DNA of 13,401 nt from a virus (IMGVR_UViG_2737471844_000004:1-13401), one strand, 5' to 3'; shown: positions 1,612 through 13,401, numbered from the stretch's first letter. The notes: generated by a model from the letters alone, not told the origin. Numbers and translations: made by a program.

Positions 1612-1791
1612 TCACCGTCGTGGCCTGTCCGGTTTCTTCCACTGATACGGCCTCACATCATCCTGCTGGTGGCGTTCCTGTTGCAGCACAACGGAAACAG
1701 GCGCTGAACACCTGTTAATTTTGCTTGCTGGTTGTTTGATTTCGGCAATGCTGCGGATCATCTCCAGCATATCGGCTTCGGTGATGGTCAT
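1612..1791 (-). CDS. Small hypothetical protein (59 aa), absent from the ORF track (below the 60-aa cutoff)
   Basis: Hand translation from the ATG at 1791: MTITEADMLEMIRSIAEIKQPASKINRCSAPVSVVLQQERHQQDDVRPYQWKKPDRPRR, stop TGA at 1614-1612. A strong SD, AAGGTG, lies 6 nt upstream of the ATG. Same strand as the island operons and followed by the hairpin at 1554-1572. Confidence 0.45.
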   Translation of the reverse strand: MTITEADMLEMIRSIAEIKQPASKINRCSAPVSVVLQQERHQQDDVRPYQWKKPDRPRR

Positions 1792-1798
1792 GATTTAC

Positions 1799-2082
1799 AC
1801 CTTAGGAAATCTTAGGGGGCTGGTTGACACTTTCCGGCTTAAGACCTTAACAAACCTTAACATCGCAGGTTGACACACTTGACACTTTTTCGCGAAAAAC
1901 CTTATCAAACCTTAGCATTTCTAAGCATGGCAACTTGACACTTTTCGCGATTTTTTTCGGCTTTTTGACGTGGTAAATCTGGCGCAAGGCCAGTAACGGC
2001 GGGGCTTACAGCGAGGTTGACACTTTTTCGCGTTCAGAGTGTAAAGTGTCAACCCGGCAAGCTGCTCAACTTGACACTTTTT
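1799..2082. repeat. Interleaved two-family repeat array; candidate packaging-specificity (cosB/pac-like) or other multi-site protein-binding region
   Basis: Family 1, TTGACAC(TTT): direct at 1824-1833, 1870-1877, 1879-1894, 1935-1949, 2017-2032, 2071-2082; inverted at 2043-2052 (AAAGTGTCAA). Three copies extend to TTGACACTTTT(T)CGCG. Family 2, ACCTTA(N), occurs in pairs phased 10 bp apart: 1799/1809 (second copy ATCTTAG), 1844/1854, 1899/1909. There is also a palindrome CTTAGcatttCTAAG at 1911-1925. The two families alternate along the 295-bp gap between the TerS-like gene and the 59-aa ORF. Confidence 0.85.
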
Positions 2083-2086
2083 GATG

Positions 2087-2614
2087 TCATTGATGGTCTG
2101 ATTTTTCCCATTCAGCTAGGGCGTTTAGCCCGGCTTCACTCCATGATTCCAGTTCATCGGCATAATCACCTGCAACATAGCAGAGTTCGCAACGCAGCAT
2201 ACTAATTGCCAGCCTGGCATTACCTCGCAAATTGTATTGTTCAAAGTAATGCTGCCCGTCGCAATCCTCAAGGCAGATAGCACCATCATCAAGAAATTGC
2301 ACTTCCCAGCCTAATTCCCCGGCTGCATCCAGCACACGCTGCTGTATGCCCTCGTCCGTTGCTGGCGCAGGAATTTTACCGTCTCTGGCCTTAACTGCTT
2401 TCCAGAACTCGCCCCACGTCATTTCCAGCGTTCTCTCTGGCCACATTTCAGAAACTGTGTCTTTTCCCTGTGCTGGTGGGCTGTTCCGCTGCTCTGTCGC
2501 TTCCACATCGATTTTTTTACCGGACATGACCACTTCGCCTTTCTCGATCCAGTCGTAAACTGTCTGGCGGCTTACGCCTTTGTGTTTGGCATATTCTGCC
2601 TTACTCATCAGCAT
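2087..2614 (-). CDS. Terminase-small-subunit-like HTH protein; candidate packaging-redirection (Rpp-like) factor
   Basis: 175-aa ORF. The N-terminus MSKAEYAKHKGVSRQTVYDWIEKGEV is a helix-turn-helix of the type at the N-terminus of lambda Nu1-like small terminases. No large terminase, portal or capsid gene follows. It is the last large gene of the operon and abuts the repeat array. An SD-like GGGTGAG precedes the ATG at 2614. Confidence 0.5.
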   Translation of the reverse strand: MLMSKAEYAKHKGVSRQTVYDWIEKGEVVMSGKKIDVEATEQRNSPPAQGKDTVSEMWPERTLEMTWGEFWKAVKARDGKIPAPATDEGIQQRVLDAAGELGWEVQFLDDGAICLEDCDGQHYFEQYNLRGNARLAISMLRCELCYVAGDYADELESWSEAGLNALAEWEKSDHQ

Positions 2615-2620
2615 TATGAC

Positions 2621-3292
2621 TCACCCTTCTTTTTCCAGTTGAGCCAGCCGCCCGGATATTTCTTCCAGTTTTTCCAGGGCTGGCTTGCAGGCCGCATCAA
2701 TAACGTCCCGGACCATTCCGGCAAGCTGTTCTTCTGCTGTCGGCGTTGTTACTTCCACGCCCGATGGTTTCCCGCCCTTATCCCAAACACCAAGCGGCAC
2801 GAGCGCAACGTGATCGATAAGAAATGGCGTACCCTCAATAAAAAAATTGTCCTCGCCCATTACATCAGGAACTTCTGCCCCACCTGAGGCACCACAAAAC
2901 ACAACCGACGGACTGGTGGATACCTCCCCTCGGGCTTTCTGGATGTAATCGATGATTTCCTGTCCGTAAATCCGGCATACGCCCCACACCTCGTCACCGC
3001 GAATATACGGCAACATGACGGTGCCAATAATGCGCGACCGTTCGCCCACGTCTTCAAGGGTTTTGCTTTCGGGATGGTCGATAATGACGGGTACTCCGGC
3101 GCAACGTTCCAGGAACTGCGGATTGAGATAAGTTTGCGGTGAACGCCAGACAAATTCTTTTTCTTCGGCGCGGTAGGCCATTCCGGTTCCTGTGATACGC
3201 AGGTTAACCAGCCACATGTTGGAAAACTGATAAGGCGACGGTAGCTGTCCGTCCCGAATCTGCTTCGCCGCCTCAATTTCTGTTAAAAGCAT
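2621..3292 (-). CDS. DUF2213/XkdF-like prohead protease or scaffold-like protein (morphogenesis-related candidate)
   Basis: 223-aa ORF. The pattern VPVIIDHP ... IIGTV ... GDEVWGVCRIY ... EVSTSPSVVF ... IDHVALVPLGVWDKGG resembles the DUF2213 layout as I recall it (H..., lS.GY, NH.ALV..GRAG). The C-terminus LEKLEEISGRLAQLEKEG looks coiled-coil. The family call is from recollection only. Confidence 0.45.
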   Translation of the reverse strand: MLLTEIEAAKQIRDGQLPSPYQFSNMWLVNLRITGTGMAYRAEEKEFVWRSPQTYLNPQFLERCAGVPVIIDHPESKTLEDVGERSRIIGTVMLPYIRGDEVWGVCRIYGQEIIDYIQKARGEVSTSPSVVFCGASGGAEVPDVMGEDNFFIEGTPFLIDHVALVPLGVWDKGGKPSGVEVTTPTAEEQLAGMVRDVIDAACKPALEKLEEISGRLAQLEKEG

Positions 3293-3356: not shown

Positions 3357-3935
3357 TCATGCCCCCGCGAGGCTTGCAACGTTAATTTTGACCAGGCGAC
3401 GGGGAGGGATTTTGAAGGCGTTCAGCCAGACGTTCGGATCTCCCTGATATTCAGTAATACGACGACCAGCTTCATCCATTCTTACGGTTTTACCCAAATG
3501 GCCCGGCGTGTTTTCCACGGCCCACTGAGCACTTTCCTGAGCAGCCTTGTAAATCTGATCTTCCAGCACCGCCAGCGTTGCAGAATCTGAAACGGAACGA
3601 ATATCCACATCACTGAATTTTTTAGCCAGCTTCTGTGCGCCAATTAATGCACGTTTGCGGTAATCCATCGACTTTTCACCAGCAAACGGGGCCGGAGCGC
3701 GACGGCCCATATTGCTGTATGCGGAATCCGCTTTAGCCTGGGCTTCTGCCAGTGAGGATTCATCTTCGACTGACGCGACGATGTTTTGATTAGCGTTATC
3801 CTCTTTTATGAAATCCTGTGCGGGGATCGCATTCAGAATTTCGATAATCTCCTGCGGAGTGCTTCCCTGCGACTCTGACAGAGCGTTAACCACCTCCATC
3901 AGTTTTAATCGCAAATCTTCTTTGCTTGCTGGCAT
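3357..3935 (-). CDS. Hypothetical protein (192 aa) of the morphogenesis/packaging operon
   Basis: The track ORF runs 3357-3944 from a GTG. The ATG at 3935 (MPASKEDLRLKLMEV...) has the SD GAGGTG 6-7 nt upstream and is preferred. The N-terminal half is acidic and helical-looking. No family recognised. Confidence 0.65.
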   Translation of the reverse strand: MPASKEDLRLKLMEVVNALSESQGSTPQEIIEILNAIPAQDFIKEDNANQNIVASVEDESSLAEAQAKADSAYSNMGRRAPAPFAGEKSMDYRKRALIGAQKLAKKFSDVDIRSVSDSATLAVLEDQIYKAAQESAQWAVENTPGHLGKTVRMDEAGRRITEYQGDPNVWLNAFKIPPRRLVKINVASLAGA

Positions 3936-3974
3936 TTTTACCACCTCTCTTTTTTCACCAAAAAATCACGACCA

Positions 3975-4350: not shown

Positions 4351-4638
4351 TCACTGACTGCAATTTTTCGATCCAGGGTATTTCCTGAATGCCTTACCAT
4401 TGGGCTGATGTAATCCCATCCCGGCATGTGCCCGGCTGATGGTTTCGCGCATCTCCCCGAAATTATCCTGCCGTGCTGGTGGGCGTGCTGCCTTGCGGAT
4501 ACATTCCGCGCGACGTTTTGCCGCCTGTTCCCGTGCCTTGTCATCATTCGCCAGCATGATGACCTCAGCCCACCGCGCCGCCGCTCTCCGGTACAGACCA
4601 CGCGCTTCCAGTGCTTCCGCTTTGCTGTCGTGAATCAT
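4351..4638 (-). CDS. PerC-family-like transcriptional regulator
   Basis: 95-aa ORF. 'AEALEARGLYRRAAARWAEVI' matches the conserved LE..G.YRRAA.RW core I associate with PerC/Pch proteins. Its ATG (4638-4636) overlaps the upstream stop as ATGA. Confidence 0.6.
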   Translation of the reverse strand: MIHDSKAEALEARGLYRRAAARWAEVIMLANDDKAREQAAKRRAECIRKAARPPARQDNFGEMRETISRAHAGMGLHQPNGKAFRKYPGSKNCSQ

Positions 4639-5183
4639 GCGCCTGTTTTCTCCTTTGCTGCCCGGCGCTGACGTTTGCGCTTCTCATTCAGCGCCACCAG
4701 CCGCGTTTCTGCGTCCTGTTGTTCCTGTGGTGTCACCTCGCCGCACGGCTGGCCTTTCAGGTCGTAGCGTACCCCACCAGCCATTAAGGCGCGGTAATAG
4801 CGCGGACACTGCGCATAAGATGCCAGCGTCGCACGTAATGCCCCTGGCCCGAATGCCAGCCCCCTGACGGCGAGATCCTGCATCAGGTCGTCGAATATCC
4901 CCACCTTAAGCGGCTTCGGTGCTTCCCGGCTGAATAATTCAGGCCACAACTCAGTGAGGCGGTTAATGCGCCTGCGGTTTTTTCGCTGCCGTTTGGTCAT
5001 ATGCCGCCACGGTGTCGCCCCTGTGGGCTTCTGCTGCGCTTTCTGGTTACCGGGCATCACTTTATGCGCCGATGTGGTTTTATCCTGCTGCTGCTGCTGC
5101 TGCTGCTGCTGCGCCGCCTGCGTCGTTTTCTGCGGCGTGCCGTAAATGCCTTTCGGTTTTCTGTTAATAGTCAGCTTAGTCAT
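4635..5183 (-). CDS. ProQ/FinO-domain RNA-binding protein with an N-terminal poly-Q tract
   Basis: LTELWPELFSREAPKPLKVGIFDDLMQDL ... LRATLASYAQCPRYYRALMAGGVRYDLKGQPCGEV aligns by eye with E. coli ProQ ([22 protein letters not shown] ... [35 protein letters not shown]). The track ORF extends to 5231. The ATG at 5183 (MTKLTINRK) has GGGG 6 nt upstream and is preferred. Confidence 0.75.
   Translation of the reverse strand: MTKLTINRKPKGIYGTPQKTTQAAQQQQQQQQQDKTTSAHKVMPGNQKAQQKPTGATPWRHMTKRQRKNRRRINRLTELWPELFSREAPKPLKVGIFDDLMQDLAVRGLAFGPGALRATLASYAQCPRYYRALMAGGVRYDLKGQPCGEVTPQEQQDAETRLVALNEKRKRQRRAAKEKTGA
5085..5111. repeat. Perfect trinucleotide repeat (CTG)9 on the plus strand = (CAG)9 encoding Q9
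   Basis: Nine uninterrupted CTG units counted directly. In frame, giving QQQQQQQQQ in the ProQ/FinO-like protein. Confidence 0.95.
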
Positions 5184-5236
5184 GCTTTGCCCCATCGTTT
5201 TTACTGATTGTTTCATATCCGGTACTTTCATCTTCT

Positions 5237-5522
5237 GGGTAGAGGGGTAGACGGCGGGTAGATAACAAAAAATAGTCCTCTACCCACTTAACTTAATGAA
5301 AAAAAACAACTTTCACACATTAGGTAGAGGGGTAGACCGTAAAATAGAAAAGTTTGAAACTTACTTTCTTACAATCTGTGTTTTCCTCTCGCTGTATAAA
5401 AAGTTTTTTGAGCGGGGATGTTGTCTACCCCTCTACCCACTTCTCTGAAAGCCTTGTGCTACGAGGGATTCAGCGGGTAGACAATAAAAAATCACCATCT
5501 ACCCTGTGTCTACCCATCTACC
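5237..5522. repeat. Iteron-type replication origin (candidate ori) just downstream of the primase/helicase gene
   Basis: Core GGGTAGA(C): direct at 5237, 5245, 5256, 5323 (GGTAGA), 5330, 5475; inverted (G)TCTACCC at 5279, 5423, 5431, 5498, 5508, 5517. The 16-mer GGGTAGAGGGGTAGAC (5237-5252) has an exact reverse complement at 5423-5438, and its 15-mer recurs at 5323-5337. AT-rich blocks at 5286-5320 and 5338-5410 lie between the iteron clusters. Confidence 0.75.
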
Positions 5523-5539
5523 TGTTACGGGTATTACTC

Positions 5540-7288
5540 TTATAAAAATTCCTCGGTTCTCTCCGTTTGTATAACGTTGGTTTGTATTCGTCCTTTAAAA
5601 CCTCTTGTCAGGTATTCAGCCCCATATTCTCTTGCTGCTGACTTCATGGCCTTACCAAAATCACCGACACTTAATATTTCTTCTTCCCCCATATACTCCA
5701 TAAAGGCGAGATATAGTCTGTACAGGCTTGTACGCGGATTAAGATCAGTTAATCTCTTACCGCCTCCCATCATCATCCCATGCGGTTCATCAAGAAATGC
5801 AAGCGCCGCACATAACCCAATGACAGGATCAGTTTCCTGTTTTATTTTCAGAGCTTCGGCACCGTCGCGCTGCTCCAACAATAATTCCCGTGCTTTTTCT
5901 GGATCGGAAAAGTTAGCCAGTAATCGACGAATAATGACAGGTATTTCCGCCGCTATCTTTTGCGGTAACTCTTTATCCTTTTCGGTCTCCCTTACAATAT
6001 TATCGAACCGAAAAATTACACGTCGACGCGCAACGCCTCCGGCCCGTTCGGTGAATGTCATCGGCACGTTATTTGTTGCCAGCACGACGGACCTGATAAT
6101 TGTTGTGAAACGCTTTTCATATTTCGGGTTAATTTCAACTGGATCTCCACCCGTTATTTTTTTGATGCCGGATCCTTCACCTGTATATTTCGGCTGGTCT
6201 GCCAGGACAATAAGACGACTTCCGACAACCTGCGCACGCCCGCCAGCATCATCAAGCGATGTCATTTCAGCGCTTACCGTGTTCTGTTTCCCTGCCAGAA
6301 GGGTGGCTATGTGCGTGATTGTGCTCTTGCCGCTCCCGCCTTCCCCTGTGGCCTCAATAAACATCTGCCAGTCGTACCGGTTCGCCATAATCATGTACAG
6401 CGCGGCGCATATACGCATCATCTTTCGCGGGTCTTTTCCTGCGGCGTGATCAAGCCATTTATGAAAGTTTGGCGCGTTGTCGCGGATGTTCTCCCCTGGT
6501 ACTGGTGGCGTGTACTCAATGCCGTTATGCGTGGTGATCCAGTTATCCGGCGAGTGCGGGGAAAATTCGCCAGTTTTCATGTCAAGCACGCCATTAGAGA
6601 ACGGCAATAAATCACCTGACGGTTCCCCCATTGGCCTGGCCATAACTTTTAAAGCATCCACAGCATTACTTATTGCTCTCCGACTAAACGATGTTCCGTT
6701 TTCTTCGTAAATAGCCACCATTTCACGACTAAGATCCAGTGTGCTTACCGGAACCCAAAAATCATCGCGCCAGACGTGGACAACCTCACTCTCCTGATTC
6801 ATTGCTACATCCTGAAATCGTTCAGCTAAAAGTTTTGCCCTTTGGCTGTCCGCCATTCTGGAAAGAGATATTTTGTGTTTTTTCTCGGTCCTTCCTGACA
6901 GAATTTCTCCGCGCTCAGCCTGTTCGCGGATCCGTTGCAGGTAGTCGCGCCAGTTCTCCGGTTCCTGGTCGGTGATGCCTTTGTATAATTTCGCCTCCTG
7001 TACGCCAGCCAGCGCCAGCTTTTCAGCGATAGTATTGATCTGGATTGGCTCTATCTCCCCCGCGATATAGACACGCGCAAAACGGCGTTTCTCGTCAATA
7101 ATGCGGATATTCGCCAGGTCTGCCAGTTGCTTTGGCCCCAGGTAAACAGGAGGCACGTTATCGCCGTGTTTTCGTCCTTCACTTTCAATCCAGTGTTGAG
7201 CATGGGCGTAAGCATCCGTCCCGGCAAAAATGATTACCTCAGTGAATTTATCCTTCGGCTGATATTTTAGACTCGGTGCGTTTTTCAC
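5540..7288 (-). CDS. P4-family phage/plasmid primase-helicase (D5-type NTPase), replication initiator
   Basis: 582-aa ORF. Walker A GEGGSGKS is encoded at 6346-6323; a Walker-B-like LIVLADQP lies downstream. The overall pattern resembles the C-terminal domain of P4 alpha / D5-family primases. GTG start at 7288 with the SD GGAGG 6 nt upstream, overlapping the upstream stop as GTGA. An iteron ori follows. Confidence 0.85.
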   Translation of the reverse strand: MKNAPSLKYQPKDKFTEVIIFAGTDAYAHAQHWIESEGRKHGDNVPPVYLGPKQLADLANIRIIDEKRRFARVYIAGEIEPIQINTIAEKLALAGVQEAKLYKGITDQEPENWRDYLQRIREQAERGEILSGRTEKKHKISLSRMADSQRAKLLAERFQDVAMNQESEVVHVWRDDFWVPVSTLDLSREMVAIYEENGTSFSRRAISNAVDALKVMARPMGEPSGDLLPFSNGVLDMKTGEFSPHSPDNWITTHNGIEYTPPVPGENIRDNAPNFHKWLDHAAGKDPRKMMRICAALYMIMANRYDWQMFIEATGEGGSGKSTITHIATLLAGKQNTVSAEMTSLDDAGGRAQVVGSRLIVLADQPKYTGEGSGIKKITGGDPVEINPKYEKRFTTIIRSVVLATNNVPMTFTERAGGVARRRVIFRFDNIVRETEKDKELPQKIAAEIPVIIRRLLANFSDPEKARELLLEQRDGAEALKIKQETDPVIGLCAALAFLDEPHGMMMGGGKRLTDLNPRTSLYRLYLAFMEYMGEEEILSVGDFGKAMKSAAREYGAEYLTRGFKGRIQTNVIQTERTEEFL

Positions 7289-12147: not shown

Positions 12148-13401
12148 TTATTTATTAGATTGCGTGATGTCAGAACATATCATGTTTTCTAAATTCACCA
12201 GCAAATCAGTCCACTGTGCCAGCGCCGCTTTGCGCTCATCAAAATATTGATGGCGGTTATAAATGCCCTCTACGCCTTTTATGCGGTGGTTAAGGCATCG
12301 TTCAGCAACGATCGGGTCAACTCCCAATGCTGCTAAATGTGTTCGTGCTGTTCGCCGGAAGTCGTGAATTGTAAAGTTGGGGACGTTCGGCATTTCTGCT
12401 CTGACTTTTGCCAATGCAACAGGAAGGGTGCTTTCCTGGATGTGAGGGATCATTCTGTGCTGCATTTTTCTGGCAGGTAATACCCATGCGCTATTGCATG
12501 AAAATGTGTGCAATTCTCGCAACCATTCTATGGTCGCTGGTGGTAATGGTATGTCGATAGCATCGCCATTTTTAGTTCGTTGTTCTGGTAGATGCCAAAT
12601 CGCGCCATCTAAGTCGAATTCATCCCACCTGGCGGCGCATAACTCCATTTTTCTGACACACAATGCTAAGAGCAACTTAAAGGTTAATTCGTTCTGGCGG
12701 CTGAATCCTTTGGCTTTACGCATGGCCTGAAAAAATTGGATTAATTCGTCACGGTTCAGCCAGCGATCACGAGATAATTCTTTCCCACCAGCATCTGATA
12801 CTTCAAAAGCTGAGCAGGGGTTAACCTCCAAAGCAAGGCGTTTAATACCGTAGTCAAATATTCGACGTGTCCACCGAAGAACGTCAGTAGCAATTGTTGG
12901 AGCGCCTCTATCAACAATGCTTTTAAGCATGGCATCAATATGGCGTGGTTTTACATCTTCAACCTTCATGTGGCCTATGGCAGGATTTATGTCTTTATCA
13001 ATGCGCCTGCGGAGAATATCTGGGTGTTTCCATCGGGGAAGTATTTGCCGTGCAAAGTATTCGGCGGCAAGTTCAGAAACATGCAGCGCGTTTTTTTCAG
13101 CTTCTATTTTTGCCAGTGCTTCGGCTTTACGCTGCTGTTTTTCTGCGGCTACGTCATATCCCAAAGCAACTCGTGCGGAAAGTTCTTTTGCCAGTTCCCT
13201 GGCTTTTGATAACGATAATTCAGAATATGAACCAATAAGCATGGCACGAGATTTTCCTGCCAGTTTATATCGAAACCGCCATGTCGGGGATCTATCCACC
13301 TCTCTATACCGGAGATATAGCCCACCACCATCAGCACGACCTTCGAAATGTTCTCCGGCTTTTATCCATGCGCGGATCTGCATATCTGTGAGTTTTGGCA
13401 T
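12148..13401 (-). CDS. int: P4-type tyrosine integrase (DUF4102-like N-terminal domain)
   Basis: 417-aa ORF starting at the window edge. The N-terminus 'LTDMQIRAWIKAGEHFEGRADGGGLYLRYR...WRFRYKLAGK' is typical of P4-family integrases. Catalytic-type motifs are present: CVRKMEL (Arg), HDFRRTARTH (His-x-x-Arg), LNH, GIYNRHQY (Tyr). Confidence 0.9.
   Translation of the reverse strand: MPKLTDMQIRAWIKAGEHFEGRADGGGLYLRYREVDRSPTWRFRYKLAGKSRAMLIGSYSELSLSKARELAKELSARVALGYDVAAEKQQRKAEALAKIEAEKNALHVSELAAEYFARQILPRWKHPDILRRRIDKDINPAIGHMKVEDVKPRHIDAMLKSIVDRGAPTIATDVLRWTRRIFDYGIKRLALEVNPCSAFEVSDAGGKELSRDRWLNRDELIQFFQAMRKAKGFSRQNELTFKLLLALCVRKMELCAARWDEFDLDGAIWHLPEQRTKNGDAIDIPLPPATIEWLRELHTFSCNSAWVLPARKMQHRMIPHIQESTLPVALAKVRAEMPNVPNFTIHDFRRTARTHLAALGVDPIVAERCLNHRIKGVEGIYNRHQYFDERKAALAQWTDLLVNLENMICSDITQSNK

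Follow-up and report, generated by a model that had tools for sequence, protein, structure and literature searches.

A TTGACAC repeat array beside a TerS-like winged-helix gene: a candidate packaging-recognition site in a phage-inducible chromosomal island

Repeats and genes at the locus

We analysed a stretch of viral DNA of 13,401 nucleotides (IMGVR_UViG_2737471844_000004:1-13401; referred to as the window throughout), which by its gene content is a Gram-negative phage-inducible chromosomal island (PICI) of the EcCICFT073 type, its gene order matching that of EcCICFT073, the prototype of such islands. The analysis concerned an array of short repeats in the 295-bp gap from 1792 to 2086, bounded by the stop codon of a gene for a 175-amino-acid (aa) protein (2087-2614, minus strand) and by the ATG of a 59-aa open reading frame (ORF; 1612-1791, minus strand). 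An original prediction, made from the sequence alone, had placed an island-specific packaging site in this gap, after a helix-turn-helix (HTH) gene resembling terminase small subunits (TerS), and the extent of the gap was as it had described.

All seven copies of TTGACAC present in the window were found inside 1824-2077. Six are direct, with plus-strand starts at 1824, 1870, 1879, 1935, 2017 and 2071, and one is inverted (minus strand, 2046-2052), in agreement with the predicted count. Shuffling gave a chance expectation of 1.7 +/- 1.3 copies and none of 200 shuffles reached seven: the clustering is real and highly non-random. The further claim that three copies extend to a unit of 15-16 bp also held, since TTGACACTTTT(T)CGCG was found at 1879-1894, 1935-1949 and 2017-2032. 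When arrays of different genera were pooled, the conserved unit amounted to about 10-12 nt, AAAGTGTCAA(C/G).

Read in the orientation of the gene, the sites follow one another as A (direct), B (inverted), C (direct), a repeat-free centre, then D, E and F (all direct). The proximal cluster begins with site A (2071-2080, plus strand, TTGACACTTT), 7 nt off the stop codon of the 175-aa gene, and continues with the inverted copy B (2043-2052, minus strand, AAAGTGTCAA on the plus strand) and with C (2017-2032, plus strand, TTGACACTTTTTCGCG). C also forms the left half of an inverted repeat, perfect over 12 bp (2015-2026 / 2043-2054). The centre is occupied by a core (1987-2014, plus strand, AGGCCAGTAACGGCGGGGCTTACAGCGA) that contains an invariant 11-mer, CCAGTAACGGC, at 1990-2000. 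The distal cluster comprises, all on the plus strand, site D (1935-1949, TTGACACTTTTCGCG), the adjoining sites E and E' (1870-1894, TTGACAC-AC-TTGACACTTTTTCGCG) and site F (1824-1833, TTGACACTTT). An 8-bp unit, GCAAGCTG, lies between B and A (2057-2064, plus strand) in a single copy; comparison of this spacer (2053-2070 in the window) with loci L142 and L145-L147 revealed that the 8-bp unit CAGCTTGC is tandemly repeated there in variable number, from one to five copies.

A second family of elements is interleaved with the distal sites; the original prediction had proposed a bending protein or a second subunit as its possible ligand. Units containing CCTTA and phased by 10 bp occupy 1899-1929 (plus strand, CCTTATCAAA / CCTTAGCATT / TCTAAGCAT), with a dyad, CTTAGCATTTCTAAG, at 1911-1925; this CCTTA-family dyad is kept in Raoultella, Pantoea and Serratia-like arrays. 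One CCTTA pair stands between F and E (1844-1860, plus strand, ACCTTAACAAACCTTAA), and a CCTTA / ATCTTA pair (1799-1815, plus strand, ACCTTAGGAAATCTTAG) is the last conserved element before the variable part, locus L003 departing from the window sequence directly past it. Five of the eight ACCTTA copies of the window fall in the gap (1799, 1844, 1854, 1899 and 1909), the count in the whole window being by itself not significant. Three ACCTTA pairs spaced by 10 bp had been predicted: the pairs are real, but the partner of the copy at 1799 reads ATCTTA (1809). No structured RNA was recognised in the array (no Rfam match, fold z-score of -0.78), and neither sigma-70-like promoters nor terminators were detected in 1400-2700.

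The 175-aa protein carries a winged HTH in residues 1-45, with GVSRQTVYDW as recognition helix, and a C-terminal alpha/beta domain; in an AF2 model (pLDDT 88) the two are joined by a disordered linker. Its description as TerS-like holds for the N-terminus. The best sequence family was phrog_57, terminase small subunit (E 1.4e-7), and alignment with TerS of the Citrobacter phage phiNP, whose terS gene precedes terL, W and the portal gene, gave 45% identity across 38 N-terminal aa (E 8e-9). The protein thus has the N-terminal winged HTH of the Nu1 type that is characteristic of TerS; the match to Pfam HTH_17 was below the Pfam cut-off. The family is confined to Enterobacterales, and its first 42 residues are almost invariant while the remainder is 35-60% identical. 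When 1.84e9 representatives were searched with a profile of the C-terminal domain, just 37 relatives were retrieved, and no phage protein was among them. Distant homologues of this domain that have no HTH were found only on contigs too short for gene context.

Conservation of the array and its coupling to the HTH gene

The array was found in 166 of 5426 complete E. coli genomes (about 3%), and the pair formed by gene and array is kept across Enterobacterales, including Klebsiella, Enterobacter, Serratia, Pantoea and Yersinia. Motif clusters stand directly after the gene in 18 genome loci and 80 viral-contig loci. On the 80 viral contigs, the 400 bp after the gene (29.7 kb in all) contained 315 motif matches, against 91 in the 894 kb elsewhere, a 104-fold difference in density. 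The association was also recovered from the other side: a scan by DNA pattern alone returned 109 contigs, and the HTH gene adjoined the array in 101 of them. Among 29 distinct E. coli-type sequences, the motif columns were conserved at 0.96, equal to codon positions 1 and 2, whereas the array spacers reached 0.874 as compared with 0.893 for third codon positions of the adjoining gene. These values indicate that the motifs are under purifying selection and that the spacers drift like third codon positions.

The arrangement of the sites is constrained as well. In all arrays the B-C, C-D and E-F spacings are fixed at 27, 81 (+/-1) and 55 bp, respectively. The D-E spacing is 46, 56 or 66 bp depending on the island, because the 10-bp unit TTTGWTAAGG, which is the ACCTTA family, occurs there in one, two or three copies. 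These changes preserve the helical phase; the A-B spacer grows by steps of 8 bp and its phase is not preserved. The invariant 11-mer of the core occurs exactly once per locus in 76 loci, and the C-D gap contains it in every locus of the family.

The same array accompanies four replication modules, each with its own iterons, and is identical in islands with other integrases and other att sites; it is independent of the replication module, the att site, the capsid genes and the cargo. Neither is it a target of the regulators AlpA or PerC, since EcCICFT073 has both of them and has neither the 175-aa gene nor the array. Some viral contigs end 3-27 nt past the gene; these ends were considered as physical ends of the DNA and were judged to be artefacts of provirus trimming. 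Two decayed islands were also observed. In one (L026 7001-7146) the HTH gene is gone and the array is only partly retained, and in the other (L214 6001-6681) a deletion has joined a gene for an AntA-domain protein to the C-terminal half of the HTH gene. The resulting AntA fusion protein (P0080) had been considered as a case of domain shuffling; this was rejected, since the fusion arose by deletion within an island.

A sister family (type 2) in the same kind of island came to light through two contigs that fitted the DNA pattern and had no member of the 175-aa family. It encodes a TerS-like protein of 190-195 aa (for example L232 9001-9588). Alignment of this protein gave 30% identity with the window protein (104 aa aligned, E 9e-7) and also with phiNP TerS (124 aa aligned). 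The two types share a homologous N-terminal region, TTGACAC repeats, a small ORF with a WK(K/R)P...RR tail and the PICI backbone. They differ in that the type 2 protein resembles phage TerS over 124 aa and the window protein over the HTH only, in that type 2 has no CCAGTAAYGGC core, and in the position of the array, which in type 2 lies upstream of the HTH gene (190-fold enriched), directly after a helper-like cosQ and a 12-nt cosN.

The type 2 array is preceded by ATGGGTCCTTCCTG-N20-CACGGGCATTGCGCGCCGCG, a cosQ/cosN of the lambda type, in a stretch 77% identical to the phiNP region just upstream of terS-terL-portal. The repeats are the same and lie between cosQ/cosN and a TerS-like gene, at the position of cosB. 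In Serratia phage BZS1, GCATTGCGCGCC is annotated as the 12-nt left cohesive end (cosL) and is followed from +48 by GGTAACA repeats and then by terS. The 12-mer of the sister islands is identical to this cosL, and their TTGACAC repeats begin at +47; R3 of lambda lies at the same position as the first repeat (PMC9026076). The sister islands therefore retain the cosQ and cosN of a helper and substitute their own repeats for cosB, a logic demonstrated experimentally for the Rpp islands (PMC6739421, PMC9026076).

The phages themselves show a related layout: phiNP (L249 3585-3837) and BZS1 (L250 48-75) carry GGTAACA repeats from +48 of the cohesive end, four further copies lie within the 5' part of phiNP terS, and the TerS helix of both phages reads GVSRKTV. 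From their position the GGTAACA repeats look like the cosB of these two phages.

Within the sister family, the recognition helix and the repeat change together. Seven loci with the helix MSRQALY have five to seven TTGACAC and no TTCACAC, whereas four loci with the helix MSRR(A/S)FY (Klebsiella, Pectobacterium and two viral contigs) have four to six TTCACAC and no TTGACAC; there was no exception among the 11 loci. The recognition rule suggested by this covariation is Q with G and R with C at position 3 of the repeat, and the window combines the Q form of the helix with TTGACAC repeats. Of the computational evidence that the repeats are read by this HTH type, the covariation is the strongest. 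The repeats of the array are real, constrained in position and coupled to the HTH type, and we consider it very probable that the 175-aa protein binds them.

The 59-aa ORF may be regarded as an optional third member of the module. It ends in the motif YQWKKPDRPRR and follows the array in 14 of 89 type-1 loci (those with the arrangement of the window), in three lineages. A homologue follows the HTH gene of the sister family (L232 9695-9886; 47% identity over 34 aa, E 2e-8), so that a small ORF of 59-63 aa with the basic tail [YFW]xW[KR][KR]PxxxRR accompanies the HTH gene in both architectures. Among phages, its sole match was weak and lay in a capsid-forming PICI.

A candidate packaging site and competing explanations

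The 175-aa gene and the array occupy the place of a known packaging module in the island. EcCICFT073 (Fillol-Salom et al. 2019, PMC6739421; Murialdo and Feiss 2022, PMC9026076) has the same backbone of int, AlpA, YlcI, Icd-like, DUF4222, primase, ori, PerC and capsid-gene homologues, and its packaging module, consisting of cos1 (GGGCGGCGACCT at L220 2558), rppA (2659-3093) and cos2, is the last core module before cargo and att. In the window this cos1-rppA slot, the last before the island end, is held by the gene and the array. Each island pairs a slot protein with private DNA elements unlike the cosB of the helper. The slot proteins are related in the HTH only and differ in the C-terminal domain: hhalign against RppA aligned just 28 HTH columns (probability 29%), no PDB sequence match to RppC was obtained at E <= 10, and from these comparisons the 175-aa protein is not an Rpp family member. 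The DNA elements differ too, the window having seven sites within 260 bp downstream of the gene and no lambda cosN, as compared with the single R3 proposed for EcCICFT073.

The reading that we favour, with some reserve, is that the array is probably the private packaging-recognition site of the island, equivalent in function to the cosB of lambda or to a pac recognition region, and is read by the island's own winged-helix protein of TerS derivation. By analogy with the sister family, there are strong grounds to think that the HTH binds these sites and that such repeats are able to serve as cosB. We can only infer the packaging role of an array placed downstream of its gene, the link to the helper terminase and the cut site.

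The proposed sequence of events would be as follows. After induction of a helper, the island would excise and replicate, using its own origin (5232-5540). The AAAGTGTCAA sites would then be bound by several copies of the 175-aa protein through the invariant helix SRQTVYDW. The spacings, either fixed or varying in quanta of 10 bp, and the phased CCTTA units would place the sites on one face of the helix, so that the DNA could be wrapped or looped into a single complex. The variable C-terminal domain, specific to the family, would couple this complex to the terminase of the helper, which would cut close by, possibly in the conserved centre, and package the island DNA.

In the cosB of lambda (R3-I1-R2-R1), which gpNu1 binds and in which an IHF site lies between R sites, several short TerS-binding repeats of both orientations likewise extend over 100-200 bp, elements of another kind stand between them, and the reader has a winged HTH of the same fold. 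This cosB differs from the array in that the repeat sequences are unrelated, the spacing in the window is 55 bp with variation in 10-bp quanta, no adjoining cosN was found and, by inspection, no IHF consensus is kept in the CCTTA units. In the pac sites of P1 and SPP1, two clusters of short repeats flank the cleavage region. The array resembles them in being bipartite, with four and three copies around a repeat-free conserved centre, and differs in having no known sequence similarity to them and no Dam sites.

Several observations weigh against a packaging role. No cosN of the lambda, P2 or phiNP type was found in the window, as the original prediction had itself reported for a cosN-like site; it is in this respect, and in the protein not being an Rpp, that the predicted cosB/pac-like determinant falls short, while the tracking of the HTH by the repeats, the cosB position in the sister family and the cos-rppA slot speak for it. 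The array lies downstream of its gene, whereas in lambda, in the Rpp islands and in the sister family the repeats are between the cut site and the gene start. The C-terminal domain of the 175-aa protein resembles no part of a terminase: it has no fold match, and neither the central oligomerisation region nor the C-terminal TerL-binding region of a TerS could be recognised. The fold of the HTH matches excisionases (Xis), TerS domains, RppC and BldC about equally. The repeats and full-length homologues were absent from every phage searched (tblastn of the protein against 50,697 phage records), and because of this no helper phage was assigned. Finally, the closest annotated relative of the core is the G+C-rich spacer of the P1-type oriR.

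The candidates for a cut site that we considered gave nothing usable. Searches of the window for the cos of lambda, P2, phiNP or CFT073 returned nothing beyond chance; the lambda-type GGGCGGCGACCT was present only with at least three mismatches, at chance level, and no lambda-type cosQ-cosN stands directly upstream of the 175-aa gene, where 6 nt separate it from the upstream gene. Neither the resemblance of the core to lambda GTTACGGGGCGGC (10/13) nor an ACG-N12-CGC pattern located 47 nt before site C was used; both were judged to be within chance or not kept in other genera.

Relatives of the core were found at L266 700-900, L259, L299 31-60, L298 2501-2528 and L300 5793-5831. On L266, an integrase-linked contig, the core is flanked by TTTCCGGT repeats and not by TTGACAC. 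In the linear records of Pectobacterium phages of the Ymer group it occupies nt 31-60, amid TTCCCCAC repeats and 180 nt upstream of terS, and in L279 a 16-mer stands directly after a primase gene amid GTGTCGGG repeats. The core of the window (1987-2014) matches a P1-like oriR at 25 of 28 positions, between five RepA iterons and the part with GATC and DnaA boxes, and the G+C-rich spacer of reference P1 is a diverged copy (18/26). From these comparisons, the core travels with arrays of differing protein-binding repeats, in contexts resembling packaging sites as well as in origins. It may be a cut site, a site for a host factor or a spacer.

This kinship brings up the possibility that the array is an origin-like or iteron element, serving as a second origin, in copy control by handcuffing, or as an enhancer in the manner of P4 crr or P1 incA, with the repeats bound by the HTH protein or by a protein of the helper and the G+C-rich core acting as it does in P1 oriR. 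The match to the oriR spacer fits this explanation, as do the order of the elements, with repeats 5' of the core on the strand reading GCCAG...CGA in both the window and P1 oriR, and the 16-mer that follows the primase gene in L279. However, the canonical origin of the island is elsewhere (5232-5540), and the array is unchanged across four unrelated replication modules that have their own iterons; as the main replication origin it was rejected on these two grounds. In the gap (1792-2086) neither a GATC cluster nor a DnaA box occurs, and there is no marked AT-rich unwinding element (GC 0.44-0.46, without an AT trough). The repeats are spaced by 55 bp, as compared with 21 bp in P1-type oriR, the protein is TerS-like rather than Rep-like, and there is no Rep_3-type initiator. 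The sister family, moreover, has the same repeats in cosB, and the Ymer-group records carry the same core at their left end, upstream of terS. We regard an origin-like role as unlikely, keeping some small weight on it because the core recurs in both packaging-like and origin contexts. It also seems improbable that the array is an operator or insulator at which the 175-aa protein, as a regulator of the MerR or Xis type, coats the gap and either controls read-through from the late operon into the 59-aa gene and the cargo or represses cargo promoters. The N-terminal fold does match Xis, BldC, Cox, AlpA and MerR types as well as TerS; the best weak NCBIfam match is an excisionase-type domain, RefSeq labels some homologues as MerR-family regulators, and the array stands exactly at the boundary between core and cargo. 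Yet at least seven sites in 260 bp with fixed long spacings would be atypical of an operator, no sigma-70-like promoter or terminator was found in 1400-2700, the downstream genes vary or are missing while the array is constant, and the sister array is tied to cosN and not to a regulated gene.

Two other explanations start from a resemblance. Seven perfect TTGACA hexamers within 260 bp could be a cluster of sigma-70 -35 elements, forming promoters or a trap for RNA polymerase or sigma, as the original prediction had allowed. None of them has a -10 partner at 16-18 bp, 0 promoter-like sites were found versus 1.5 expected, conservation extends beyond the hexamer over AAAGTGTCAA(C/G), and one sister lineage has TTCACAC throughout together with the matching HTH change, all of which makes this alternative extremely improbable. 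The arm of an attP, with sites for an integrase or excisionase in the attachment region, is likewise brought to mind by the interleaving of short direct repeats, by the phased units and by the Xis-like fold of the neighbouring protein. The anatomy of the island contradicts this: the att core GTTACTCAATATTCTGAATCT is about 2 kb off with the cargo between, the int-proximal arm carries different repeats of the GGTGTACCCAAAC type and no TTGACAC, and the same array accompanies other integrases and att sites. The attP-arm candidate was rejected, and we give it hardly any credence.

On the packaging reading, the module is the satellite strategy of a private recognition site with a specificity protein, in a new form. 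A much more tentative proposal, to which as a whole we would assign a rather low probability, is that of a portable cassette. It may consist of a protein derived from a TerS DNA-binding domain, a private repeat array and a small basic protein, and may come in two architectures: one in which the cosQ/cosN of the helper is kept and only cosB is swapped, and another, that of the window, which has no recognisable cosN and is built around the mobile G+C-rich core. The core may be a general element for the assembly or cleavage of wrapped nucleoprotein machines, and islands of the window type may, by means of their unique C-terminal domain, take over headful (Terminase_6N) helpers and dispense with the TerS of the helper.

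No characterisation of the module was found in the literature searched. Many enterobacterial PICIs have no Rpp, TerS homologue or recognisable cos, and their packaging is unexplained; EcCIMP1 (PMC11773190) has been published as an example. For such islands the module would be a concrete candidate that provides a cis site and a trans factor; if confirmed, it would offer a compact packaging signal for engineered transducing particles.

The surrounding island

All core genes of the island are on the minus strand. The integrase gene (12148-13401) lies at one end of the island and is followed by the early genes. Then come genes for a D5_N primase-helicase (5540-7288), ProQ/FinO (4635-5231), PerC (4351-4638), a 195-aa protein (3357-3944) and a DUF2213 protein (2621-3292), all minus strand. 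The origin (5232-5540), directly after the primase-helicase gene, consists of about 12 GGGTAGA(G/C) iterons in both orientations around an AT-rich core (5340-5410). Other islands with the same array have other replication proteins, with iterons CCTCACTTTT, CGGGATA or the P4-type TGTTCACC. In one of them (L025 10298-10524), the primase gene is followed by TGTTCACC repeats, which we take to be the P4 type-I iteron, and the genes sid, psu and delta are absent.

The stretch from 1500 to 2700 has an identical copy in an island of E. coli A17, located between yicC and dinD and flanked by the att core as a 21-bp direct repeat. As in other PICIs, the integrase stands at one end and att repeats flank the island, a regulator of the AlpA type is present, the primase/helicase gene is followed by an origin with iterons, and there is no full set of virion and lysis genes.

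The only virion-type gene in the island is a split scaffold/protease homologue: the 195-aa and DUF2213 proteins jointly match one phage family of 545 positions, phrog_6216, as well as the 430-aa protease/scaffold head protein of phage Rac-SA53, to which the DUF2213 protein is 54% identical. From this homology, the split protein is possibly used for redirection of capsid size; some islands with the same array have neither gene. The terminase of Rac-SA53 is of the Terminase_2 / Terminase_6N type, which goes with headful packaging. Neither a TTGACAC cluster near terS nor the core element was found in this phage.

On the other side of the array, two cargo genes on the plus strand (1-762 and 753-1244) correspond to the PADLOC candidate defence system PDC-M04 (A, DUF3800, E 8e-98; B, E 9e-74). 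In islands encoding an identical 175-aa protein, the cargo after the array is PDC-M04, SIR2, DUF4747 or Abi_2. A related island, whose protein is 83-89% identical, has in this place a pair of DUF4435 and AAA ATPase genes which, by gene content, looks like PARIS. Next to the array, where core genes give way to cargo, lies a hotspot for cargo and defence genes, an arrangement also seen in P4 and P2, whose defence hotspot borders cos (PMC9122126). As a mark of the hotspot edge, the array helps to delimit cargo and to predict co-mobilisable islands. At the opposite end, just outside the window, the interval from int to the att core contains GGTGTACCCAAAC / GGTGTGTACACC-type repeats (L001 26400-26480) that are probably integrase arm-type sites.

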